Shown here piece after piece: positions 5,334-59,301 of a stretch of 64,000 bases of DNA. The position numbers and the translations under genes were made by a program. The stretch comes from a virus. The notes beneath the pieces were generated by a model. That model saw only the letters and a program-made list of their open reading frames with translations. It was not told the DNA's origin and did not search any database. The first letter of the stretch is position 1, and every line of letters starts with the position of its first letter. Location: positions 10,814 through 74,813 of the IMG/VR virus record IMGVR_UViG_3300021961_000065; one strand, written 5' to 3'.

Positions 5334-7582
5334 TAAACATTAGAAGTTGCTGTGGCAGGGAACGCCCATCCTAGTAACTTCATATCTTTTCCTTCTTCTG
5401 AATTTATCTTTAAACTTATTGTTTTACCAGAACCTCTTAGCTTATTCTTTGTTATAATAACTCCATCACCATAGTCAAAAGGATCTCCTGATCCAGTAGG
5501 TATGTAGTTTCTTAATAAACGATAAGCTTGGAATTCTGATCCCCATTTACCACTATTAGCACTATTTGACCAATTCCATTGTGATTGTACTTTACATGAT
5601 GATTGGTTATTAAGAATTAAATTAGATCCTGAAGCTATATAGCCATCTTCTGTACGAGTAAAATAGAAGAATACATAAGGTATTTGTTTGTCTCTCATAA
5701 CATCACCAAACAACTCATAACCTGTTACAAGATAACTAGTATAGCTAACTCCTGTACCATTTTCTGTTACCCAATCTTTAAATGACAAGTTATTAAATTT
5801 AGATAGAGTAAAAGAAGTACCTACTATAGTTAAATAACTAAATTGTGAACTTCTATTTAATAACAAATCTTCTGTTGTTACTACAGTATCAGAATTACTA
5901 TCTATAACTGTATCTCCACTTGTAACTAATACAGATTGATCAAAACTAGATACGGCATAACCAGGTACTTCAATATAGTCAGCTACATAAGGTGAATTAG
6001 TTGCAAGATCACTAAATGTATTTGTGTACCAAGCTTGGAGTGTAAGATCATATACAAGTTCCTTGGTATACTTATTTATATAATTATTGTTCGTATAAGA
6101 AGTACTATCATTATATAACCAACGTACTCTATTTTCTTTCTCATCATAGAATCCTTTACAGTTGTTTTTACCAATGTCAGGAATACCTAAATATAAAGAT
6201 TGAATTGTTGTAAGTGATAAAGATTCAGCTTTAAATCTTCCTGCTACAGAGTCTGTAGATAATAAATAAATACCTGCTTTAGACCAATATACAAAGTTAC
6301 CCCCTACATTAACTACAGATTTAGAATTTAAGATTCCATTTGGAGAAATCTTACTTGCTTGGAAAGAAGTAGCTACGAAACCATTAGTATCTCCATAAAC
6401 TTCCCACACACCATTCTCTGCAAAGACAAGTAAAGATGATTGAGAAGAAATTATCTTAACAATACGAGTAGCTTCTGGTATCTGAATAGTACCCCCATCA
6501 GAGTCAATAATGTCATTAATACCAGGATCTGTAGGATCAGCTTCTTGATGACATTTACCTAAGTCTGTATTAGATGTTACAACTTTAGTAAAGAATATAT
6601 ATCCTGAATAATTAGGAGATTTAGCATCACCATTTGTAACACTAGAATCAATACCTGAATAGAATATACGTTGAGCATAAGAAGCAATAGTAGATATATT
6701 ACCTGTTTCTGTATCTGAATTAAGTCCTGTAACATCTGTTCCTGCTTCTCTAGAAGAACCTCTATCAAAGGCATCTATAATGATTGAACCTCTAGCTACT
6801 GTATAACGTGATTGTGAGTTCTTTTGTAATACTACTGGATCAAACTTTTCATAATTAGCATCGGCTGAATTACTAATCTTACCAAGAGTCCATGAATCAG
6901 AATTACTTGGATATTTACTTAGAGCAGTAAATGTTTCAGCTAAAGCATCTCCTCCTCCTTTAGTAACAATGTTTTCATTCCAACCTTGGTTACGAAGATT
7001 ATACTTATGCTCATCTGATAGAGTAGCAGGTCTTTCATCATCTCCTAAACCATCTACTAATCCCCATATATCTCTAACTTTAATATCAATAGTAGATTGA
7101 GTTACTGTATCTGTTGTACTATTGTAAGAAAGAAGTACAGGTTTATCTATGTCTTTAGAAACAATAATTAACTGATTGTTAATAACAGCAGTTTCTATAT
7201 TATTGTTAGATAGTCCTGTTATCGTAATAGAATTACCACTATTTAATAAATTAGCACTAGGAGCTGAAGTTAAGAGATCTATAAACCATAGTTTATTTTT
7301 AACACGAATAACACCAATAGCTACAGATGAGTTACCACTAGGAGTATCCCATCTATGAAAAGATTGTTTACCTTGTTTAATATCATCTGCTGTTAAACCT
7401 GTAGAAGTCTTTGCATAGGCACCTTCATAGTCTAAACCTAGTCTACGAGAGCGTGAGCCATCTCTATTGAGTACAAAGTTTTGTTCGTCAATAGAAGCAT
7501 TCTCTGGAAATGTAAGAGGACTCGCCTCTGTAATTAGACCCTTGACAAAGGATCTAAAGACTTTCTCGGTTTTAGCTGCCAA
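5333..7582 (-). CDS. Tail tubular protein B / nozzle
   Basis: 749 aa, beta-rich, podovirus gene order, strong homologue at 49103-51400. Confidence 0.75.
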   Translation of the reverse strand: MAAKTEKVFRSFVKGLITEASPLTFPENASIDEQNFVLNRDGSRSRRLGLDYEGAYAKTSTGLTADDIKQGKQSFHRWDTPSGNSSVAIGVIRVKNKLWFIDLLTSAPSANLLNSGNSITITGLSNNNIETAVINNQLIIVSKDIDKPVLLSYNSTTDTVTQSTIDIKVRDIWGLVDGLGDDERPATLSDEHKYNLRNQGWNENIVTKGGGDALAETFTALSKYPSNSDSWTLGKISNSADANYEKFDPVVLQKNSQSRYTVARGSIIIDAFDRGSSREAGTDVTGLNSDTETGNISTIASYAQRIFYSGIDSSVTNGDAKSPNYSGYIFFTKVVTSNTDLGKCHQEADPTDPGINDIIDSDGGTIQIPEATRIVKIISSQSSLLVFAENGVWEVYGDTNGFVATSFQASKISPNGILNSKSVVNVGGNFVYWSKAGIYLLSTDSVAGRFKAESLSLTTIQSLYLGIPDIGKNNCKGFYDEKENRVRWLYNDSTSYTNNNYINKYTKELVYDLTLQAWYTNTFSDLATNSPYVADYIEVPGYAVSSFDQSVLVTSGDTVIDSNSDTVVTTEDLLLNRSSQFSYLTIVGTSFTLSKFNNLSFKDWVTENGTGVSYTSYLVTGYELFGDVMRDKQIPYVFFYFTRTEDGYIASGSNLILNNQSSCKVQSQWNWSNSANSGKWGSEFQAYRLLRNYIPTGSGDPFDYGDGVIITKNKLRGSGKTISLKINSEEGKDMKLLGWAFPATATSNV

Positions 7583-7586
7583 TTAA

Positions 7587-7856
7587 TTATTCCTCAGTAG
7601 ATTGTTCTTCTTTTTCTTTAATAGTCTTTTTAAGATCTTTAACAAACTCTTTGTTTTCTGCTTTCTTTTCGAAACGATCTTTGTTATTTAGTAGATAGTT
7701 ACGAACAGCTATTTGTGCTACAGCACTTGATGTAAAGAATCCTGCTAGTTCTTGTGGTGTTTGTCCACCTTGAGTAAATTGTATTTTATAATGTCCAGTA
7801 CCTGGAGCATTAACAATCTGTATCTCCTTACCATTTGGGGTCATAAATGTATCCAT
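7587..7856 (-). CDS. Conserved hypothetical phage protein
   Basis: GGQTPQELAGFFTS matches GGELPEQLGGHFTS in 51401-51643. Confidence 0.6.
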   Translation of the reverse strand: MDTFMTPNGKEIQIVNAPGTGHYKIQFTQGGQTPQELAGFFTSSAVAQIAVRNYLLNNKDRFEKKAENKEFVKDLKKTIKEKEEQSTEE

Positions 7857-7870
7857 TGTTTATCCTTAAG

Positions 7871-8107
7871 TTATTTAATTTTAGACTTTTTATAGTTCTC
7901 TTTGTTTTCTTCTCTAGTTTGAATAGTTCTAGCCATAGAGTCTTTAACTATGTTTTTCATACCTTCATAGAGCTTCTTACCTGCTTTGATAGGTGAGGGT
8001 GGTTTACCTTCGCCCATATTAGCTTTAGTAGAGTTAGCATCACGAATAGCTGCTATCTCTTCAGCAGTCATTTCGCTAGGTTTTTTACCTTTATATAAAT
8101 CTCCCAT
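7871..8107 (-). CDS. Hypothetical charged protein
   Basis: In-operon ORF; start overlaps the upstream stop. Confidence 0.5.
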   Translation of the reverse strand: MGDLYKGKKPSEMTAEEIAAIRDANSTKANMGEGKPPSPIKAGKKLYEGMKNIVKDSMARTIQTREENKENYKKSKIK

Positions 8108-8523
8108 TAGTTTCCTCCCATCATTTTACGAGCTTTTCTTTCAGCTTCTCTAGCCCAAGACATACGATCTTCTGATGGTTCTGACTTAGCTGATAAAGTA
8201 CCAGTAGCTGTTTCTTTTGATTGACTCAAATTATTAACATAGTCTTGTACAATAGGATTATTAGAATAGCTCTCTGCAGAAGAAGTAGATTCTTTTACAC
8301 TAGATTTAGAATTATAATTAGGTCCTTGTCTAAGCACATCATCAGATTGTCTTACTACTGAAGTTTGAGGAGCTGTTGATTTACGAGGTACTGTATAATC
8401 AGGTCCTTTTGAAGTATCAGTAGGAATATACTTAGGTTTTTTTAGATTAGCTTTATATCTTTCATTAGCTTCTTTATTAGCTTTTTCATAAGAAGGTTGT
8501 TTGTACTTTTTCATGAGTGGCAT
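8107..8523 (-). CDS. Hypothetical low-complexity Ser/Lys-rich protein
   Basis: In-operon ORF with AGGA upstream. Confidence 0.5.
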   Translation of the reverse strand: MPLMKKYKQPSYEKANKEANERYKANLKKPKYIPTDTSKGPDYTVPRKSTAPQTSVVRQSDDVLRQGPNYNSKSSVKESTSSAESYSNNPIVQDYVNNLSQSKETATGTLSAKSEPSEDRMSWAREAERKARKMMGGN

Positions 8524-8525
8524 GA

Positions 8526-8669
8526 TTAATATCCTTGTTTTTTAGGTTTAACTATCTTTTTCATAGGTTTCTTTTTCATTGTTTTCATAGAAGTTTTCCT
8601 TTTCTTAGTTGATTTACCATATTGTTCTTTGTGAACAAATGCCTGAGTATTGCTCGTTAGTTGTGACAT
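8526..8669 (-). CDS. 47-aa basic peptide whose N-terminus resembles the major capsid protein N-terminus
   Basis: Hand translation: MSQLTSNTQAFVHKEQYGKSTKKRKTSMKTMKKKPMKKIVKPKKQGY. TAATG coupling to the adaptor gene. Homologue at 51887-52051. Confidence 0.8.
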   Translation of the reverse strand: MSQLTSNTQAFVHKEQYGKSTKKRKTSMKTMKKKPMKKIVKPKKQGY

Positions 8670-9445
8670 TAGTAGTTAGGTTTTCCTTTCACTCCTGGTT
8701 TACGTCCATAATTACCAAAGGTAATTCCATTCTTTAGTTTCCATGCCTCTTGAGACATTCTACGTTTCTGTGAAACGGATACTTGTTCAGCCTTAGGATT
8801 ACCCATTTGTTTTAATGTAATAAAGCAAGTAGACTTAGCTTCTGCTAATAAGTATGTAAACATTTGAACAGGAAGATCAGGTGTAAAAGAATCTGTTATA
8901 CTAAAAGCAACTGATCGTTTGCCATGACACTGTGTCTTACTACTTACAAGAGTAGAATTAACAGCACTATCATAAGAATCAAATACAAGATTGTCATCAT
9001 CAAATGAAGTAAAGTATTGAGGAGGTTTATCATTATAAATTAATAAAGATATACCTGTTGTATCTGTTACTGTAGTTACATTAGATGCAGAACTATCTCT
9101 TTGATTCAAGATATAAAGAAAGTCTTCAGGAGTCTTATAGAGAATCTCTTTATACTTGTCCTTAGTATCTGTAAGTTTTCTACAATTATAATTAAGCTTC
9201 TTAAGATCAATAATAGTTTCAGGTAGACTCATGTGAGTAGGTCTTGCTGAAGTACCACTACTATCTAATTGAAACAACTCATAGAGAAAAGGAAAGTCTT
9301 TACCATCTATAATGTTATAATAAGTTGATTTAATAATCTGTGCTACTTGTAAGGCTTCGACTGTATCATTAATACTATTAATTTCATCAGAGTCCATATC
9401 TGACATGATGTCTTGTACCATTTCAAGTAGTGTCATTTTAGCCAT
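8669..9445 (-). CDS. Tail tubular protein A / head-tail adaptor
   Basis: N-terminus MTLLEMVQDIMSDMDSDEINSI is typical of gp11-like adaptors. Gene order fits. Homologue at 52051-52827. Confidence 0.7.
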   Translation of the reverse strand: MAKMTLLEMVQDIMSDMDSDEINSINDTVEALQVAQIIKSTYYNIIDGKDFPFLYELFQLDSSGTSARPTHMSLPETIIDLKKLNYNCRKLTDTKDKYKEILYKTPEDFLYILNQRDSSASNVTTVTDTTGISLLIYNDKPPQYFTSFDDDNLVFDSYDSAVNSTLVSSKTQCHGKRSVAFSITDSFTPDLPVQMFTYLLAEAKSTCFITLKQMGNPKAEQVSVSQKRRMSQEAWKLKNGITFGNYGRKPGVKGKPNY

Positions 9446-9449
9446 AATT

Positions 9450-10022
9450 TTATCCTAGAAATAAAACAGTTAAACCTGCTTCAGTTGGAGTAATATTAGT
9501 TCCTGAAGAAGTACCATCTCCTCCTACAAACATGGATAGTGTTTGACCTGCTGTTGCATTAACTAAACCACTAGAAGCTAAAGTAATTTTATCAGCTCCA
9601 TTAGTAGGTTTAGCAACAGTTGTTAATCGAGCTCCTACAGAACCATTTAAAGCATATTTAAAGTTATAAACTGAACCTGAAGCAATAGCTGCTGTTGTAA
9701 AGTTAATCCAGAAATCTACATAATAAGTACCTGCTTGATTAAGAGTAATGATACCACTTGCAGGAGTTGTAGTTAAAATAGACACATCACCTTGTGTCCA
9801 TTCTCCACTTGGATTAAGAAGTGAATAAGCAGAAGCACCTGCTAATGTATGAGCAGTAGCACCTGCTGAGATGTATAGATCTGCATGAGCTTTACCTGGA
9901 GGGTATGTCCATGCACCAGAACCTGATCCATTAGAAATATATACTTTACCACTTGTAGCAGCAGCTACACCCTTAGGCTCATGTATATCTGGATCTGTGA
10001 TAATGTTATGTTGTATAGTCAT
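9450..10022 (-). CDS. Virion structural protein (putative head fibre/decoration)
   Basis: HEPKG..GKVY.SNGSGSGAW N-terminus, beta-rich C-domain. Homologue at 52837-53412. Confidence 0.55.
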   Translation of the reverse strand: MTIQHNIITDPDIHEPKGVAAATSGKVYISNGSGSGAWTYPPGKAHADLYISAGATAHTLAGASAYSLLNPSGEWTQGDVSILTTTPASGIITLNQAGTYYVDFWINFTTAAIASGSVYNFKYALNGSVGARLTTVAKPTNGADKITLASSGLVNATAGQTLSMFVGGDGTSSGTNITPTEAGLTVLFLG

Positions 10023-10425
10023 TTAATATATATTCCTAAAAGATAAGGGAGGGTCCGAAGACCCTCATCCTTAATTAGTTTTTGTCGTAAACGTATTCAA
10101 CGACAAGTCGAGCTTTACCTGTAAGTAAATCGTCAACGTTAGGAGCAACTACAACTTCTCCTGCAGTAGCACCGATTGTTTTACCTACTAAAGCACCTGC
10201 ACCAGTAACAACGTTACCTGCAGTGCCAATAGCTGTTTGTGTAGCCTCATCAGCTTCCACCAAACCATCAGCATCGATAGCAACACCTGCAGAATTATAC
10301 AATCCAACAACTAAGTCTGTTGTAGTAGATGTAGAAGTAAATGCTACATCAACATATAACTTAGCTGAAACGATTGTTGCGTTTGCAGGAATAACATATT
10401 GTAAATTGCTAGTACCAGAAGCAGG
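9964..10425. repeat. 462-bp exact direct repeat, copy 1 (copy 2 at 53354-53815)
   Basis: Line-by-line comparison found no mismatch across this interval; offset 43,390 bp. Confidence 0.9.
10036..10073 (-). terminator. Intrinsic terminator after the capsid genes
   Basis: Minus strand GAGGGTC-TTCG-GACCCTC stem with extended TAAGG/CCTTA pairing, followed by TCTTTT. Confidence 0.75.
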
Positions 10426-10574: not shown

Positions 10575-11555
10575 TTAGTAATTAGATGGATGAGTTAAAA
10601 TTACACCCAACGTGTCAACACGTTGAGCACCAAAACCGAAGCGAGAAGTAACTTGATACTTGTCAGCTCTTTCTTCGTTGTCTCTCCAACCTTCTGTTTT
10701 TGGAGCACGTCTCCATGCGTGCATAATTGGCTTGCATGAATCATCAGCCACACACATAAATACGTTTGCTTTGTCACCAACAGCAGCAGTTTCAGATGTT
10801 AAACCATATGAAGAAGCATTGATAGCTTCAGTAGCTGTTAATGTAGGTAAGAAGTTAGAAGTATAGATGTCGAAACCAAAGATATTCTTAACGAATTTAT
10901 GATCACGAGCAAAACCTTCTGTTACAATACCATCAAACATTGGGTTATTTGAAACGTTAACTAAGTTTTGTAAGCTATTTAATGTAGCTTCAACAACTGG
11001 ATCAACGATAGCAATACGACCACCTGCAGGAACATTAGCTTTATCAAATGCTAATTTCATAGCGATAAAGTCTTCTAATGTAATAGTTCTTGCATTAGCT
11101 GCAGCAGAACCTACCCAACGATGTGGACGACCATTAACTAAGTTAAGGTTAGCTGCAGTTTGACCTGAGTTAGCAGCAGCTAAATATTTAGTTTCGTGGT
11201 TTTCACCAAGAGCACGTGTAGATTCCATAGCTCTCATAGACATTAATGTGTCTACTTGTGAACCATCTTCACGTAAGTCGTCAGAAACTTTCCAAGCATC
11301 ACCAACATAGTCAGTAATAGCAAGTGTTAAGTTACCTGTGTCAATAGGTGAGAAATTTAAAGGTGTATCCTCAGCAGCATCTTGAAGAGTTACTGTACCT
11401 ACTGTTTTAATGTTTAAAGTTGTACCTGAACCAAAGTCAGTTACATCTCTCCACATTCCTTCTGGCAATAGATAGTCATGTAAGTTTTCAAGGATAAACT
11501 GAGAATACTGTTGAGCTTCAATAAAAGCTGTAGTATTAGAAGTTAATTGTGACAT
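10575..11555 (-). CDS. Major capsid protein
   Basis: 326 aa, follows the scaffold gene. Podovirus MCP-like motifs (VTDFGSGTTLNIKTVG, DKANVP..GR.AIVDP, final RFGFG..R). Strong RBS. Confidence 0.9.
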   Translation of the reverse strand: MSQLTSNTTAFIEAQQYSQFILENLHDYLLPEGMWRDVTDFGSGTTLNIKTVGTVTLQDAAEDTPLNFSPIDTGNLTLAITDYVGDAWKVSDDLREDGSQVDTLMSMRAMESTRALGENHETKYLAAANSGQTAANLNLVNGRPHRWVGSAAANARTITLEDFIAMKLAFDKANVPAGGRIAIVDPVVEATLNSLQNLVNVSNNPMFDGIVTEGFARDHKFVKNIFGFDIYTSNFLPTLTATEAINASSYGLTSETAAVGDKANVFMCVADDSCKPIMHAWRRAPKTEGWRDNEERADKYQVTSRFGFGAQRVDTLGVILTHPSNY

Positions 11556-11568
11556 TTAAGTCTCCTTG

Positions 11569-12288
11569 TTAATTGTTTAATTGTCGTTTTACTTTTTCAC
11601 CTGCAATTCGCCAAGCATTAAGCATATCTTTAGTAGAAGCACCTTTAGGTACTCTAGCAGATAACTCATCTGTTGCTTTATTATTAGATAAAGATTCTGT
11701 ATTTACAGTACTTTGTGATTTTGCAACTGTTGTAGCTCTGTTATCAAAACCTGCTAATTTTAAAACAACATTTGGAGATGTTGCAGATAAATTGTGTAAT
11801 TGTTCTAGTGTCATACCTGACTCTTTTGCTAAGGTATTATAAACTTCTTCAGCTTTACTTCCATACTTTTCAGTAAACTTGTCAGCTACTGAACGAGCAT
11901 TAGTTTGAGCTTTAGTTAGTTTTTCCCTTTGCTGTAAGGTTTGATTAACTAGATCCATGATTCTATCTTGGTTTATTTCACTCGTAGAAGTGGTAGCTTC
12001 TTGAGGTTGAATACCAGACTTTATTTCATCAAGTAACTCTTCTGTTGTTCTACGTTTAGCAAGTTCCTCTTTCAAATGAGTCATTTCTTCCTCTAGGGTT
12101 TTGATATGCTCTTGTGCATGAGGCACTGATCTTAACGCATCATCAACAGATTTATACTTTTTACCTTCGCCTACAAACTCTTGAGCTTCTGTCGGTATCT
12201 CAAAAGGTCTAGCTTGGGTATCTTGTTGCTGAGTCTCTTGGGTATTTGACTCAACAGCTTGTTCTTGTTTAACTTGTTCTTCACTCAT
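11569..12288 (-). CDS. Capsid scaffolding protein
   Basis: Acidic N-terminus, GKKYKS motif and coiled coil, located between portal and MCP. Confidence 0.75.
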   Translation of the reverse strand: MSEEQVKQEQAVESNTQETQQQDTQARPFEIPTEAQEFVGEGKKYKSVDDALRSVPHAQEHIKTLEEEMTHLKEELAKRRTTEELLDEIKSGIQPQEATTSTSEINQDRIMDLVNQTLQQREKLTKAQTNARSVADKFTEKYGSKAEEVYNTLAKESGMTLEQLHNLSATSPNVVLKLAGFDNRATTVAKSQSTVNTESLSNNKATDELSARVPKGASTKDMLNAWRIAGEKVKRQLNN

Positions 12289-14345: not shown

Positions 14346-15875
14346 TTAGTAAGTTACTCCCCCAAAACGAGAGTGTGTTTGTATACGACTTGTCATATTA
14401 ATAACATTACCTCTACCTTTTGGTACGATTGAAATAGCAATAGCATTGGCTAGTGCATCTTTAATATCATCGTGAGGAGGATGTCTTTGTGTTAATTCTT
14501 CTTCTAATGGTTGGCAATTACCTCCTTTGTAATGCCATATTTGTTTATTATCATATTTAGGTTCTAAAATAGCACTAATACGTTGTCGTTTATCACCCAT
14601 ATGTCGTGTAGGTCTATACTCATCAATAGCAAGAGGTATACCATTAGGTCGTAAATAACTATCTTTTAATTCTTTAACAATAAGTTGTTGAGCTACAGTA
14701 ATTTCAGCTCGTAGTTTTCTAAATCCCCACTTTTCCCAAGAACGTAATATATGAGAATAGTAATCAACAATTTTATCTGTTTTAAAACGATCTATATCTA
14801 AGACATAATAATTAGCTTGACTATCTACACCAATGATAACAAGAGCTGTATAGTCAGCTTTTTTACGTAAACTAAAAGCAAAGTCAATCGCTGCATATAT
14901 ATTTAATTTACGATCTCGTATAAACCAGTCGCCTTCTTTATTTGTTAAAACTGAACGATCATAATATTGAAAATCATCTACATTTAAATTAGCTGTTTCT
15001 TTACTATTAGGATCATTATAATATTGTGCAAAGAATTGAGTTTGATCTACATATTTAGCACGAATACGAGCTAATTCTCTTGCATCAAATCCAAATGATT
15101 TACCATCTTTACGTTTTTGTTTACTCCAAAGAAACTCACCATTAGTTTCTACTACTCGTTGAAATAATTCATAGACTGGCTCTTCTTCAAGCATTTCTCC
15201 TTCATCATCATAAATGCTTTCTTTCATGTTTACCATTGTGTCATATATATCTCTGGGGTGATAACGAGTACCAACAACCCACTCAAAAGCACCAGGATTT
15301 TCAATGGAAGCCAGTTGACTATATGCTGACGATACTTTATCTCGTCCCTCTTCAGTATAAGCATTACCAGGCACAACAATGTCGTCAAGCACAACAACAT
15401 CAGCATGGAAACCAGTAGTATTTGAAGTAAGTCCAACTGCTTTAACACTGGCATCTCTTACTCCTTCCTCTTTTCTTTTTGGATGATCAACAGCTATTTC
15501 AGCTACTGCCCATCGTTCTCTTTTGCCCTCTTCAGGATGTAACATTTCAGACCAATAACGTCTATAAATTGGACTATCTATAATTTGTTTAATTTGATAT
15601 AATTGTTTTTCAGCTAAATCTGCTGTAGCTGATACATATAATATAGTAGTTTCAGGATGTTTAGTTAACCACCAAGCTGTTCTATATGCTACTAATTTAG
15701 ATTTCATATGTCCACGAGGAAGTAATACAAGTTGATTGTTTTTAGCTTCTTGTCTAGTCCACCATTGTATTAATTCTTCATGTATAGCTCCCATCATTAA
15801 ATGAGGAGCTACTAATTTAATAAACGTTAGTAAGTCTTCTTCTGCTGCTTGTCTAATTTGGTCAATTTGACTCAT
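14346..15875 (-). CDS. terL: Terminase large subunit
   Basis: LLPRGHMKS ATPase motif, VVVLDD Walker B, VGTRYH, nuclease AIDFA..DYTA and HDDIKDA. Confidence 0.93.
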   Translation of the reverse strand: MSQIDQIRQAAEEDLLTFIKLVAPHLMMGAIHEELIQWWTRQEAKNNQLVLLPRGHMKSKLVAYRTAWWLTKHPETTILYVSATADLAEKQLYQIKQIIDSPIYRRYWSEMLHPEEGKRERWAVAEIAVDHPKRKEEGVRDASVKAVGLTSNTTGFHADVVVLDDIVVPGNAYTEEGRDKVSSAYSQLASIENPGAFEWVVGTRYHPRDIYDTMVNMKESIYDDEGEMLEEEPVYELFQRVVETNGEFLWSKQKRKDGKSFGFDARELARIRAKYVDQTQFFAQYYNDPNSKETANLNVDDFQYYDRSVLTNKEGDWFIRDRKLNIYAAIDFAFSLRKKADYTALVIIGVDSQANYYVLDIDRFKTDKIVDYYSHILRSWEKWGFRKLRAEITVAQQLIVKELKDSYLRPNGIPLAIDEYRPTRHMGDKRQRISAILEPKYDNKQIWHYKGGNCQPLEEELTQRHPPHDDIKDALANAIAISIVPKGRGNVINMTSRIQTHSRFGGVTY

Positions 15876-51886: not shown

Positions 51887-52051
51887 TTAGTAACCTTGTT
51901 TTTTAGGTTTAGCCATTTTCTTCATTGGTTTCTTTTTAGGCATAGGTTTCTTTTTCATAGGATGTTTCATAGTTTTTTTACCTTTCTTAGTTGATTTACC
52001 ATATTGTTCTTTATGAACAAAGGCTTGAGTGTTGCTCGTTAATTGTGTCAT
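51887..52051 (-). CDS. 54-aa basic peptide with MCP-like N-terminus
   Basis: MTQLTSNTQAFVHKEQYGKSTKKGKKTMKHPMKKKPMPKKKPMKKMAKPKKQGY; TAATG coupling to the adaptor gene. Confidence 0.8.
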   Translation of the reverse strand: MTQLTSNTQAFVHKEQYGKSTKKGKKTMKHPMKKKPMPKKKPMKKMAKPKKQGY

Positions 52052-52827
52052 TAGTAGTTAGGCTTTCCTTTAATACCTGGTTTACGACCATAGTTTCCAA
52101 ATGTAATACCATTTTTTAGTCTCCAAGCTTCTTGGCTCATTCTACGTTTTTGAGATATAGAAGCTTGTTCTGCTTTAGGATTAGGCATTTGTTTTAAAGT
52201 TAAGAAACAATTTGATTTAGCTTCTGCTAATAAATAAGTAAACATTTGTACAGGTAAATCAGGTGTAAAAGAATCTGTTATACTAAAAGTTACTGATCTT
52301 TTACCTTGTGCTTTTGTTTTAGAAGAAGACAATGTAGAGTCTATAACACTATCATAAGAATCAAAAACTAAAGTTTCATCATCAAAAGATGTAAAATAAT
52401 TAGGACTTTGGTCATTATAAATATTTAAAGTAATACCTGTAGCATCTGTAACAACAGTTACATCAGAAGCAGAGCTATCTCGTTGATCTACAATATACAT
52501 AAAATCTTCAGGTGTTTTATAAATAATTTCTTTATATTTATCTTTAGTATCAGTTAACTTACGACAATTATATTTAATAAATTTAAGATCTATAATATCT
52601 TCAGGTAGTCTCATGTGTGTAGGTTTTGTATTATCACCTGAAGCTTGTAACTGAAATAACTCATATAAAAATGGCATATCACGACCATCTATAATATTAT
52701 AGTATGTTGATTTAATTATTTGGGCTACTTGAGTGGCTTCTTGAGTATCATTAATACTATTAATTTCATCAGAATCCATGTCTGACATTATGTCTTGTAC
52801 CATTTCAAGTAGTGTCATTTTAGCCAT
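52051..52827 (-). CDS. Tail tubular protein A / adaptor (second homologue)
   Basis: Same length as, and colinear with, 8669-9445. Confidence 0.7.
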   Translation of the reverse strand: MAKMTLLEMVQDIMSDMDSDEINSINDTQEATQVAQIIKSTYYNIIDGRDMPFLYELFQLQASGDNTKPTHMRLPEDIIDLKFIKYNCRKLTDTKDKYKEIIYKTPEDFMYIVDQRDSSASDVTVVTDATGITLNIYNDQSPNYFTSFDDETLVFDSYDSVIDSTLSSSKTKAQGKRSVTFSITDSFTPDLPVQMFTYLLAEAKSNCFLTLKQMPNPKAEQASISQKRRMSQEAWRLKNGITFGNYGRKPGIKGKPNY

Positions 52828-52836
52828 AATTTATTC

Positions 52837-53412
52837 CTAGTCTAAGAAGAGAGCTACTAAACCTGCTTCAGTTGGAGTAATATTCTCTCCTGAAGAAGTA
52901 CCATCTCCTCCTACGTGTATTGATAATAATTGACCTGCTGTTGCATTTACAGTGCCTGTAGAAGATAAAGTTAATTTATCAGCACCATTAGTAGGTTTAG
53001 CTACTGTACTTGTTCGAGTACTTGTTGTACCATCTAAAGCAAATTTAAAGTTATAAACAGATCCTGAAGCTATAGCTGTTGTTGTAAAGTTAATCCAAAA
53101 AGTAATTAAATAGTGACCTGCTTGATTAAGTGTAATAACTCCACTAGCAGGTGTTACAGTAAGAATATCTTCATTACCTGAAGCTGTCCATTCGGCACTT
53201 GGATTAAGAATTGTATAAGCAGAAGCTCCTGCTAAAGTATGTGTAGTTGTACCACTTGTAATATAAATTTCAGCATGAGGTTTACCAGGAGGATATTCCC
53301 ATGCACCTGATCCTGATCCATTAGAAATATATACTTTACCACTTGTAGCAGCCGCTACACCCTTAGGCTCATGTATATCTGGATCTGTGATAATGTTATG
53401 TTGTATAGTCAT
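52837..53412 (-). CDS. Virion structural protein (second homologue)
   Basis: Homologue of 9450-10022. Confidence 0.55.
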   Translation of the reverse strand: MTIQHNIITDPDIHEPKGVAAATSGKVYISNGSGSGAWEYPPGKPHAEIYITSGTTTHTLAGASAYTILNPSAEWTASGNEDILTVTPASGVITLNQAGHYLITFWINFTTTAIASGSVYNFKFALDGTTSTRTSTVAKPTNGADKLTLSSTGTVNATAGQLLSIHVGGDGTSSGENITPTEAGLVALFLD

Positions 53413-53815
53413 TTAATATATATTCCTAAAAGATAAGGGAGGGTCCGAAGACCCTCATCCTTAATTAGTTTTTGTCGTAAACGTATTCAACGACAAGTCG
53501 AGCTTTACCTGTAAGTAAATCGTCAACGTTAGGAGCAACTACAACTTCTCCTGCAGTAGCACCGATTGTTTTACCTACTAAAGCACCTGCACCAGTAACA
53601 ACGTTACCTGCAGTGCCAATAGCTGTTTGTGTAGCCTCATCAGCTTCCACCAAACCATCAGCATCGATAGCAACACCTGCAGAATTATACAATCCAACAA
53701 CTAAGTCTGTTGTAGTAGATGTAGAAGTAAATGCTACATCAACATATAACTTAGCTGAAACGATTGTTGCGTTTGCAGGAATAACATATTGTAAATTGCT
53801 AGTACCAGAAGCAGG
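53354..53815. repeat. 462-bp exact direct repeat, copy 2
   Basis: Identical to 9964-10425. Confidence 0.9.
53426..53463 (-). terminator. Intrinsic terminator after the capsid genes
   Basis: Identical to 10036-10073. Confidence 0.75.
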
Positions 53816-53968: not shown

Positions 53969-54952
53969 TTAGTATGTAGCTTCGTCAGTTAAAATAACAC
54001 CAAGTGTATCTACACGTTGAGCACCGAAACCAAAGCGAGAAGTAACTTGATACTTGTCAGCTCTTTCTTCTTGATCTCTCCAACCTTCTGTTTTAGGAGC
54101 ACGTCTCCATGCGTGCATGATTGGCTTGCAAGAGTCATCAGCAACACACATAAATACGTTAGCCTTGTCACCAACTTCAGCAGTATCGTTAGCTAAGCCG
54201 TAGCCTGAGCCGTCAATAGCTTCTGTAGAAGTTAATGATGGTAAGAAGTTAGAAGTGTAGATGTCAAAACCAAATATGTTTCTTACAAACTTATGGTCAC
54301 GAGCAAAACCTTCTGTTACGATACCTTCGAACATTGGGTTGTTTGATACGTTTACTAAGTTTTGTAAGCTGTTTAATGTAGCTTCAACAACTGGGTCTAC
54401 AATAGCGATACGACCACCTGATGGAACATTAGCTTTATCAAATGCTAATTTCATAGCGATGATGTCATCTAATGTCATGTTACGAGTAGAAGCACCTGCT
54501 CCACCTGCAACCCAACGATGTGGACGACCATTTACTAAGTTAGCATTAGCAGCAGTATGAGCAGCATTAACAGCAGCTAAGAATTTAGTTTCATGGTTTT
54601 CACCTAATGCACGGGTAGATTCCATAGCACGCATAGCCATGAGTGTATCTACTTGAGAACCATCTTCACGAAGGTCATCAGACACTTTCCAAGCATCACC
54701 TATATAATCAGTAATAGCAAGTGTTAAGTTACCTGTGTCAATAGGAGAGAAATTTAAAGGAGTATCCTCAGCAGCATCTTGAAGAGTTACAGTACCTACT
54801 GTCTTGATGTTTAAAGTTGTACCTGAACCGAAGTCAGTTACATCTCTCCACATACCTTCTGGCAATAGATAGTCATGTAAGTTCTCAAGAATAAACTGTG
54901 AATACTGTTGAGCTTCAATAAAAGCTGTAGTATTGCTAGTTAATTGTGACAT
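53969..54952 (-). CDS. Major capsid protein (second homologue)
   Basis: Highly similar to 10575-11555. Confidence 0.9.
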   Translation of the reverse strand: MSQLTSNTTAFIEAQQYSQFILENLHDYLLPEGMWRDVTDFGSGTTLNIKTVGTVTLQDAAEDTPLNFSPIDTGNLTLAITDYIGDAWKVSDDLREDGSQVDTLMAMRAMESTRALGENHETKFLAAVNAAHTAANANLVNGRPHRWVAGGAGASTRNMTLDDIIAMKLAFDKANVPSGGRIAIVDPVVEATLNSLQNLVNVSNNPMFEGIVTEGFARDHKFVRNIFGFDIYTSNFLPSLTSTEAIDGSGYGLANDTAEVGDKANVFMCVADDSCKPIMHAWRRAPKTEGWRDQEERADKYQVTSRFGFGAQRVDTLGVILTDEATY

Positions 54953-57765: not shown

Positions 57766-59301
57766 TTAATAAGATACACCACCAAAACGGGAGTGTGTTA
57801 CTATATTTCTACCTACACTAAAAGCACCTACACGCTGTTTAGGAATCACAGCTATTGCGATAGCGTTTGATAGAGCATCTTTAATATCGTCATGAGGTGG
57901 ATGAGTCATGACTAATTCTTCTTCTAATGATTGACAATTACCACCTTTATAATGCCATACTTGTAGGTTGTCATACTTAGGTTCAAGCACTGCTCCTACT
58001 CGTTCTTGTTTGTCACCTAAATGCCTAGTAGGTCTAAACTCTTCAATAGAAAGAGGTATACCATTAGGTTTTAAATAGCTCTCCTTAAGCTCCTTAACAA
58101 TCGTTTGCTGAGCTACTGTGGTCTCTGCTCTAAGTTTTCTAAAGCCCCACTTCTGCCATGCTGTAAGAATGTGATTGTAATAATCTACAATACGTTCTGT
58201 TTTAAATCGATCTATGTCTAACACATAGAAGTTCCCTTGATGATCTACTCCTACAACTACTAAAGCTGTATAGTCAGCTTTCTTTCTTAATGAGAACGCA
58301 AAGTCAATCGCTGCATAGACGTTGAGTTTACGATCTCGCATATACCAGTCCCCTTCTTTATTCTGTAGAATGTTTCTATCATAATATTGAAAGTTATCTG
58401 CATTAATTCTAGCTGTCTCAGTACTATTAGGATTATTATAGTATTGAGCATAGAATTGAGTATTATCGACATATTTAGCTTTGATTCGTGCTAACTCTTT
58501 AGCATCAAATCCAAAAGCTTTACCATCTGACCTTGTTCGTTTAGCCCATAGAAACTCACCATTGGTTTCTACGACCCTTTGAAATAACTCATATACTGGA
58601 TCTTCTGAAACTAACTCTCCATCTTCATCATAAAGAGTTTCTTTCATATTGATCATAGTATCATAAATATCTCTAGGATGATAACGAGTGCCAACAACCC
58701 ATTCATAAGCACCAGGATTTTCAATGGAGGCGAGTTGTGAATAAGCCGAGGCAACCTTTTCTCTACCATCTTCCGTATAAGCGTTACCTGGCACAACAAT
58801 ATCATCCAAGACGACAACATCAGCATGAAAGCCAGTAGTATTACTGGTAAGCCCAACAGCTTTACAAGTAGCATCCCTGATTCCTTCTAGTTTTCTTTGT
58901 GGGTGGTCTACTGCAATCTCAGCAACTGCCCACTTTTCACGTTTACCCTCTTCTGGGTGTATCATATCTGACCAATAACGTCTGTATATTGGATTATCTA
59001 AGACCTGTTTAATTGCATATAGCTGTTTCTCAGCTAAGTCAGCAGTAGCAGACACATAGAGTATAGTTGTTTCAGGATGCTTTGTAATCCACCATGCAGT
59101 TCTATAAGCTACTAACTTAGACTTCATGTGTCCTCGAGGAAGTAATACTAATTGGTTTTGTTTAGCATCTTGACGTTGCCACCATTGTATTAATTCTTCA
59201 TGAATAGCACCTAACATTAAGTGAGGAGCTACTAACTTAATAAACGTTAAGAGATCAGCTTCTGCTGCTTCTCTTATTTGATCTATACTAGCTTTTAACA
59301 T
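57766..59301 (-). CDS. terL: Terminase large subunit (second homologue)
   Basis: Same motifs as 14346-15875. Confidence 0.93.
   Translation of the reverse strand: MLKASIDQIREAAEADLLTFIKLVAPHLMLGAIHEELIQWWQRQDAKQNQLVLLPRGHMKSKLVAYRTAWWITKHPETTILYVSATADLAEKQLYAIKQVLDNPIYRRYWSDMIHPEEGKREKWAVAEIAVDHPQRKLEGIRDATCKAVGLTSNTTGFHADVVVLDDIVVPGNAYTEDGREKVASAYSQLASIENPGAYEWVVGTRYHPRDIYDTMINMKETLYDEDGELVSEDPVYELFQRVVETNGEFLWAKRTRSDGKAFGFDAKELARIKAKYVDNTQFYAQYYNNPNSTETARINADNFQYYDRNILQNKEGDWYMRDRKLNVYAAIDFAFSLRKKADYTALVVVGVDHQGNFYVLDIDRFKTERIVDYYNHILTAWQKWGFRKLRAETTVAQQTIVKELKESYLKPNGIPLSIEEFRPTRHLGDKQERVGAVLEPKYDNLQVWHYKGGNCQSLEEELVMTHPPHDDIKDALSNAIAIAVIPKQRVGAFSVGRNIVTHSRFGGVSY

Follow-up and report, generated by a model that had tools for sequence, protein, structure and literature searches.

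Introduction

In other HK97-fold phages, the N-terminal arm (N-arm) of the major capsid protein (MCP) binds the scaffold in the prohead and pairs with the E-loop of a neighbouring subunit in the mature head (PMC11922011). The internal proteins IPI, IPII and IPIII of phage T4 are small and basic; a short N-terminal signal brings them into the prohead, where they accompany the DNA, and they are later injected (PMC3012670, PMC7697877). In Thermus phage P74-26, five copies of PVP (gp34) are found only around the portal aperture, where they contact the DNA ring; the N-terminal arm of this protein joins the MCP β-sheet as a strand, and its Lys2 lies in the DNA minor groove (PMC12407722). Lambda gpD and A4 gp25 are accessory proteins that dock by N-terminal anchors (PMC12002296); in these two, as in Dec of P74-26, attachment to the shell works through an extended N-terminal segment that is added as a strand (PMC12002296, PMC12407722).

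The locus analyzed here encodes a small (35–63 aa), intrinsically disordered late protein that is translationally coupled to the head–tail adaptor gene. Judged by pairwise and profile comparison, its head (~18 residues) is a copy, now diverged, of the arm at the extreme N-terminus of the phage's own HK97-fold MCP, and this head is followed by a polybasic tail.

Genomic organization of the locus

The window, i.e., the whole 64,000-nt stretch of DNA that was analyzed, is part of a 74.8-kb IMG/VR record containing two diverged copies of one podovirus virion module. The modules share an exact 462-bp repeat (9964–10425 = 53354–53815) and are elsewhere 79–86% identical; this suggests that two related genomes were joined in the record, or that one genome was assembled inside a relative, and the record does not look like a natural 75-kb phage. 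The module runs on the minus strand in the order portal, 73-aa ORF, scaffold, MCP, two small capsid-associated genes and adaptor, followed by the mimic-peptide ORF, a few variable small genes, a conserved 80–89-aa gene, and the nozzle and ejection proteins. The mimic-peptide gene thus sits within the virion-gene block, with the adaptor on one side and the nozzle on the other. Among cultured phages, the closest are two Zobellviridae of OM43 Methylophilales, MEP401 and MEP402, with an adaptor identity of 65–68%. The coordinates of the features are collected in Table 1.

Table 1. Location of the mimic-peptide genes and of the neighbouring virion genes in the window.
Feature	Position	Strand	Product length	Basis or remark
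Mimic-peptide gene, copy 1	8526–8669	−	47 aa	ORF and match to MCP N-arm
Copy 1, head codons	8616–8669	−		MSQLTSNTQAFVHKEQYG
Copy 1, polybasic tail	8529–8615	−
Copy 1, stop codon	8526–8528	−		TAA
Mimic-peptide gene, copy 2	51887–52051	−	54 aa	ORF; tail 7 aa longer than in copy 1
Head–tail adaptor, copy 1	8669–9445	−	258 aa	phrog_7592; 66–68% identity to the 'adaptor' of MEP401/402
Head–tail adaptor, copy 2	52051–52827	−	258 aa	TAATG junction as in copy 1
MCP, copy 1	10575–11555	−	326 aa	HK97 fold; PF25209; copied N-arm residues 1–19 at 11499–11555
MCP, copy 2	53969–54952	−	327 aa	N-terminal 25 residues identical to MCP copy 1
Scaffold	11569–12288	−	239 aa	Acidic N-terminus, basic C-terminal segment; MEP401/402 counterpart annotated scaffold
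Variable cassette	7587–8523	−	138 aa, 78 aa; 89 aa	Small basic/disordered proteins (138 and 78 aa), then conserved 89-aa gene phrog_9082

Both ORFs named in the preliminary description were found on the minus strand (8526–8669 and 51887–52051), each coupled to its adaptor gene as claimed: at 8669 and 52051, the peptide ATG shares one base, its A, with the TAA stop of the adaptor (TAATG). The N-terminal 40 residues of the scaffold are strongly acidic, and this protein is a candidate for the procapsid partner of the MCP N-arm.

The slot between adaptor and nozzle is a cassette of variable small basic proteins. The gene after the peptide (8107–8523, minus strand, in the window; 5908–6354, plus strand, in L006) encodes a disordered, Ser-rich protein of 138 or 148 aa; in close relatives its C-terminal third is kept (...SWAREAERKARKMMGGN) and its N-terminal part is swapped out. 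In the second module, the same slot holds a different gene of 79 aa. In phages without the mimic peptide, the adaptor is followed directly by the 89-aa gene (phrog_9082).

Similarity of the peptide to the MCP N-arm

Pairwise BLASTP aligned the peptide to the MCP from Met1 to Met1 with 12 identities over 19 positions and no gaps (E 3e-7). A comparison of the peptide-family profile (alignment of 24 members) with the MCP-family profile (alignment of 22 MCPs) in hhalign matched columns 1–19 to columns 1–19 at a probability of 95.8% and E 6.6e-9, so the gapless copying of the MCP N-terminus described earlier was reproduced by both methods. A search of all six reading frames of the window for NT..F[IV]....Y[GS] found this motif at four places only, the starts of the two MCPs and of the two peptides. 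When the peptide was run with tblastn against 50,697 phage records, the only matches, with weak E values of 8–10, lay at the MCP starts of PA11-like Pseudomonas phages. Residues T5, N7, T8, F11, I/V12 and Y17 are fixed in both families, and the peptides depart from the MCP systematically at three positions, with N, H or K in place of E13, G in place of S18, and P, K or Q in place of T9. These three departures make the peptide an imperfect mimic, which may bind something else.

Several simpler interpretations of the head were considered. Alternation of conserved residues as a mark of a β-strand was rejected, since odd and even positions are both conserved (5, 7, 8, 10, 11, 12 and 17). A programmed frameshift fusion to the adaptor was likewise rejected; no slippery heptamer is present, and peptide and MCP stay in register from Met1 onwards. 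The argument that loss of the MCP's invariant E13 rules out scaffold binding is weakened by Siovirus-type MCP arms, which have R or K at this position (LIRGEVWG).

The heads of the type-E peptides (L046, L047, L057 and L064) read FIKGDVYG and are closer to this Siovirus-type arm, found in L083/L084 and in Celeribacter phage P12053L, than to their own MCP arm, FIEAQQYS; either both sequence types fit one binding site or the head came from another lineage. The sole other near-match to the MCP N-terminus in the window lies in TerL (511 aa), which contains GLTSNTTGFHAD in both modules (15404–15430 and 58824–58850, minus strand) and has 7 of 8 residues (LTSNTT.F) in common with QLTSNTTAF of the MCP. 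This likeness is probably due to chance, since it adjoins the Walker-B-like VVVLDD.

AF2 predicted no secondary structure for the peptide (pTM 0.15). The AF2 model of the MCP, based on the 22-sequence alignment, had a pLDDT of 57.6, with residues 1–83 below 50, and is too poor for placing the N-arm; Foldseek assigned it to the HK97 fold, with cyanopodophage A4, P-SCSP1u, Kp7 and T7 as the nearest structures. A search for MCP homologs gave no deeper alignment, the best 120 matches all having at least 89% identity.

Distribution of the peptide family

To read the sequence 3' of the adaptor stop, 80 IMG/VR loci were fetched via the adaptor. An intact peptide ORF was present in 65 of the 65 clade loci with enough downstream sequence, always with a length of 35–57 aa, the same head, and an ATG located 1 or 4 nt inside the adaptor stop. 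In the adaptor tree (FastTree topology, rooted on distant members), the peptide-bearing loci form a single clade. The peptide is absent from the sister lineage L055, from the next lineage L005 and from all deeper Zobellviridae relatives examined, including Vibrio, Pseudomonas PA11/TC6, Citrobacter CVT22 and Siovirus-like phages; in relatives without it, a conserved gene of 60–105 aa stands directly after the adaptor. The simplest history is therefore a single gain, with no loss observed. The clade consists of marine podoviruses related to the OM43 phages MEP401/402, which themselves carry peptide homologs, and it is abundant in coastal metagenomes, where thousands of close MCP relatives are found.

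An exhaustive profile search of 1.84 billion representative proteins returned ten clusters at E<=1e-3, all of 39–63 aa and of the same design, and no longer fusions of the head were among them. When longer proteins were searched by word index for heads fused to other domains, only three MCP-length proteins (321–327 aa) were retrieved, with weak E values, one of them carrying the capsid family PF25209. There is no evidence here for the head as a wider 'tag' system, a profile this short having limited power. In 59 Siovirus-like loci and 4 cultured Zobellviridae, small ORFs mimicking the N-arm did not rise above the shuffled null.

The peptide cannot be placed in any Pfam, PHROG or PDB family. 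Both peptides matched 0 families in PHROGs v4 at E<=0.01, the 47-aa peptide matched 0 Pfam-A families at E<=0.1, and no solved relatives of the MCP or the adaptor were detected among PDB sequences with phmmer. Neighbours in the ESM Atlas are unnamed clusters of small hypothetical proteins. The peptide had been called unannotated, which holds for Pfam and PHROGs but not for GenBank, where the MEP401/402 homologs gp37/gp39 are labelled 'hypothetical protein'. The MEP401/402 paper makes no mention of the gene, and the literature searched contains no description of the peptide or of any MCP-arm mimic.

Selection on the head and relation to the own MCP

Among 30 distinct DNA variants of the head, pS was 0.70 (saturated) and pN 0.225, giving a pN/pS of 0.32; saturated synonymous change with a low pN/pS indicates selection on the head at the amino-acid level. 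The two window copies show 5 synonymous changes and 0 non-synonymous ones over the 16-codon head, in agreement with the earlier observation that the head is conserved at the protein level despite synonymous changes; the copy 2 head equals that of copy 1 apart from one Ser-to-Thr change.

Between the head and the MCP arm of the same phage, pS was 0.71, again saturated, and the nucleotide identity was 24–33 of 48 positions (about 60%). The Ser codons also differ between the two families, AGC in one and TCT in the other. The saturated pS and the different Ser codons exclude recent gene conversion from the MCP gene. On these substitution patterns, the likeness between head and MCP is kept by protein function, and neither recent gene conversion nor a shared RNA signal explains it.

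The same data bear on the possibility that the ORF is a relic of a partial MCP duplication, or a nucleic-acid element for translation initiation, with a functionless peptide. Although the ~60% nucleotide identity over 48 nt could be taken as a trace of such an origin, the synonymous sites are saturated, the Ser codons differ, the Met1-to-Met1 register is kept, and the ORF is intact throughout the 65 clade members with a head under the constraint given above. We regard this explanation as hardly tenable, and among the alternatives it is the only one that is essentially excluded; disruption or absence of the ORF in relatives, which the preliminary description had proposed to look for, was not seen inside the clade.

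Co-variation of the head with the phage's own MCP N-terminus appears weak. The mean number of identities was 9.81 of 16 with the own MCP versus 9.47 with shuffled MCPs, and 21 of 10,000 shuffles reached the own value, uncorrected for phylogeny. Derived states are common to the peptide and its own MCP in three lineages, namely TTANT in MEP401/402, MAST.NT in L070 and TGNT in L069; in three further lineages they are not. The power of this comparison is low, because the MCP arm is nearly invariant across the family, even at 45% adaptor identity.

Properties of the polybasic tail

The tails in the window are 29 aa (copy 1) and 36 aa (copy 2) long, contain ~47% K+R and zero acidic residues, and both terminate in KPKKQGY; this ending and the unequal length had been noted from the sequence at the outset. 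The 7-residue difference corresponds to tandem units of 15–18 nt made of KKPM-type codons (51921–52000), and tail length probably changes through slippage. Across the family, tails have a mean length of 30 aa, 46% K+R, 1.2% D+E, a net charge of +8 to +17 and a pI of 10.5–11.9. They fall into at least five unrelated types, some with small recurrent motifs (NPFK.LQ.K, GSFSKQL, terminal KPKKQGY), and the types do not track the adaptor tree. The two-part design, a constrained N-arm-like head with a basic, sequence-free tail, holds family-wide. The loci W1 and L006 have adaptor 3' ends that are ~95% identical and yet carry different peptide alleles, with heads differing at many synonymous sites, which places an exchange point at the adaptor/peptide junction.

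Type-C tails overlap a basic ORF of 59–60 aa (MAEKWIQKAIKKPGAL...) in another frame (L025:5838–6017, plus strand; same slot in L026–L045). This ORF has a weak Pfam match to the fusellovirus VP2 family PF25632 (E 0.009, below the cut-off). In the overlap, pS is 0.21 and pN 0.03 in the frame of the other gene, and pS is 0 and pN 0.08 in the peptide's own frame. The overlap thus evolves under the other gene's frame, which implies that the tail sequence is unconstrained and that the basic character alone persists; only the charge of the tail seems to matter, not its sequence.

Tail diversity of this kind could reflect an arms race, with the head imitating a capsid epitope recognized by an abortive-infection sensor, or with the peptide acting as a co-injected escort that shields DNA. 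In its favour, hypervariable tail alleles are swapped between near-identical backbones, the break lying where adaptor and peptide meet; the slot as a whole consists of small genes that vary; and the analogous T4 gene 61.1 copies gp23 residues 57–93. A decoy or escort of this sort is nevertheless quite improbable: expression is late and tied to that of a structural gene, conservation lies in the head and not in the tail, and the variability of type-C tails is explained by the constraint of the overlapping gene rather than by positive selection. We also know of no defence system in OM43 hosts that senses this MCP arm.

Possible function of the peptide

Of the readings considered, we prefer, tentatively, the one in which the peptide is a disordered accessory component of the virion that docks via an N-arm-type contact and places its polycationic tail on DNA; the selected likeness of the head, the composition of the tail, the coupling to the adaptor within the virion operon and the docking of other accessory proteins by N-terminal strands make this possible, though by no means assured. 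The head would take the place of an MCP N-arm at one of the sites where such arms normally bind. Candidate sites are the scaffold or spine-helix contact of the procapsid-state arm and the arm-accepting sites on neighbouring MCP subunits, the latter being most plausible where they may be left empty around the portal vertex, at which a penton is missing. Docking would anchor a polycation of 20–40 residues (46% K+R, ~1% D+E) against packaged DNA or against acidic portal/adaptor surfaces, the tail acting via charge and not sequence. On this view, the peptide would be an accessory peculiar to the clade, outside the core set of assembly proteins, and it may exit the head together with the DNA. The sister lineages L055 and L005 and the deeper Zobellviridae have the same MCP N-arm without the peptide, and thus a general need in assembly does not explain it.

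A low-copy location, at the portal vertex or internal after loading with the scaffold, is favoured over a bulk protamine role, because a closed T=7 lattice leaves none of its arm sites vacant, because the gene is coupled to that of a 12-copy protein, the adaptor, and because relatives with the same capsid lack the peptide. A high-copy neutralizer, with about one peptide per MCP lining the inner shell and offsetting much of the DNA charge, would be in keeping with the basic tail (46% K+R, net +8 to +17), and PKKK/KKPM repeats resemble basic tails that bind the minor groove. Such a role is very improbable, since in the closed shell every N-arm site is filled by the MCP, leaving no free site per subunit, and hundreds of copies would be needed from a gene coupled to that of a 12-copy protein. 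The charge of a 43-kb genome is so large that, by our estimate, even 415 copies at +15 would balance no more than ~7% of it; moreover, the relatives that lack the peptide have the same genome size as well as the same capsid.

Alternatively, the peptide may act during assembly and be lost before the virion is complete: a free copy of the N-arm could transiently cap the N-arm-binding surface of the scaffold or of unassembled MCP. In a variant of this idea, the tail possibly binds the acidic N-terminus of the scaffold and tunes nucleation or stops off-pathway polymerization. The head is homologous to the N-arm and selected, the gene is expressed from the late structural operon, the scaffold is strongly acidic over its N-terminal 40 residues, and prohead N-arms are a scaffold-binding element in several phages (PMC11922011). 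We consider a non-virion assembly factor unlikely all the same. Assembly proceeds without the peptide in relatives, both close and distant, that share the MCP arm and have a homologous scaffold; a polybasic tail of free sequence has no obvious place in this mechanism, which also leaves the coupling to the adaptor, rather than to the scaffold or MCP, unexplained. Blocking of the capsids of competing relatives, another role suggested earlier, is unlikely because relatives share the N-arm of the producer.

The interpretation given in the preliminary description is partly supported: the gene is real, modular and selected, and the peptide may dock on the capsid, be present in the virion and act on DNA. 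If the head of the putative virion peptide docks at the MCP N-arm site, it would represent a minimal, self-derived capsid-addressing tag of ~18 residues that tolerates any basic tail. This would bear on how phages load or seal their heads and could provide a handle for placing peptides in or on HK97-fold shells. The clade has cultured members (MEP401/402 on OM43), which opens the idea to bench testing. Even if the peptide were only a cytoplasmic factor, it would still be a conserved, clade-defining micro-gene that annotation pipelines list merely as 'hypothetical'.

Comparison with known systems

Phage T4 (NC_000866) also encodes a free-standing mini-protein in which the N-terminal arm region of the phage's own MCP is copied. 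The 54-aa gp61.1 (L149:1967–2131, minus strand), annotated as 'hypothetical protein', matches residues 57–93 of gp23 (L150:4946–6511, plus strand) with 17 identities over 37 positions (E 6e-9) and ends in KKKKEESKEKEE, a K/E-rich tail. The likeness to the mimic peptide thus extends to a charged tail and to an uncharacterized status, and the literature searched contains no description of gp61.1 as a capsid-arm look-alike. Consequently, the earlier statement that no equivalent has been described needs amending, as gene 61.1 is an analogous look-alike of an MCP N-terminus, although it is itself uncharacterized. The two proteins have only the design in common. There is no sequence relationship to the mimic-peptide family (PHROGs, 0 hits), and the tail of gp61.1 is mixed K/E and not polybasic. 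The segment copied from gp23 surrounds the maturation cleavage site, at which gp21 acts on a protease-processed MCP, and gene 61.1 adjoins the primase gene (61), outside the virion operon. In the mimic-peptide phage, by contrast, the scaffold is a separate protein and no protease gene came to light in the stretch from portal to MCP, which holds only the 73-aa ORF and the scaffold; among the ORFs scanned, no protease family was found.

The T4 case indicates that the design recurs in an unrelated lineage, which lowers the uniqueness of the mimic peptide and raises the chance of a general principle. By analogy, an MCP-arm copy on a mini-protein could be a general, convergent way in which tailed phages address small cargo or sealing peptides to capsid sites, a counterpart of the cargo-loading peptides of encapsulins, here delivering a polycation to the portal vertex or DNA. 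This generalization is speculative and, on present evidence, somewhat doubtful; the parallel with gene 61.1 makes it testable in the best phage model.

The T4 internal proteins IPI, IPII and IPIII offer a functional model for a peptide that is loaded into the head and co-ejected. Their CTS differs in being a scaffold-core signal that is cut off by the gp21 protease and is no copy of an MCP arm; it has no sequence similarity to the peptide, the head of which is homologous to the MCP arm and not to the CTS. P74-26 PVP, from an unrelated siphovirus, has a globular domain; homology between its arm and that of the MCP has not been reported, and its five copies were shown by cryo-EM. The proteins gpD, gp25 and Dec possess folded trimeric or dimeric domains on the capsid exterior, in contrast to the mimic peptide, which has no folded domain and a polycationic tail. 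Adenovirus mu and VII and tails of the protamine/H1 type are short, polycationic, disordered polypeptides that condense DNA, the adenovirus core peptides doing so inside a dsDNA capsid. The mimic-peptide tails resemble them in their high K/R content, near-zero acidic residues and disorder; the eukaryotic-virus and protamine-type polypeptides are Arg-rich, high-copy and protease-processed and have no capsid-derived docking head. In functional terms, the nearest known kinds would be the CTS-tagged internal proteins of T4 and the N-anchored accessory capsid proteins.
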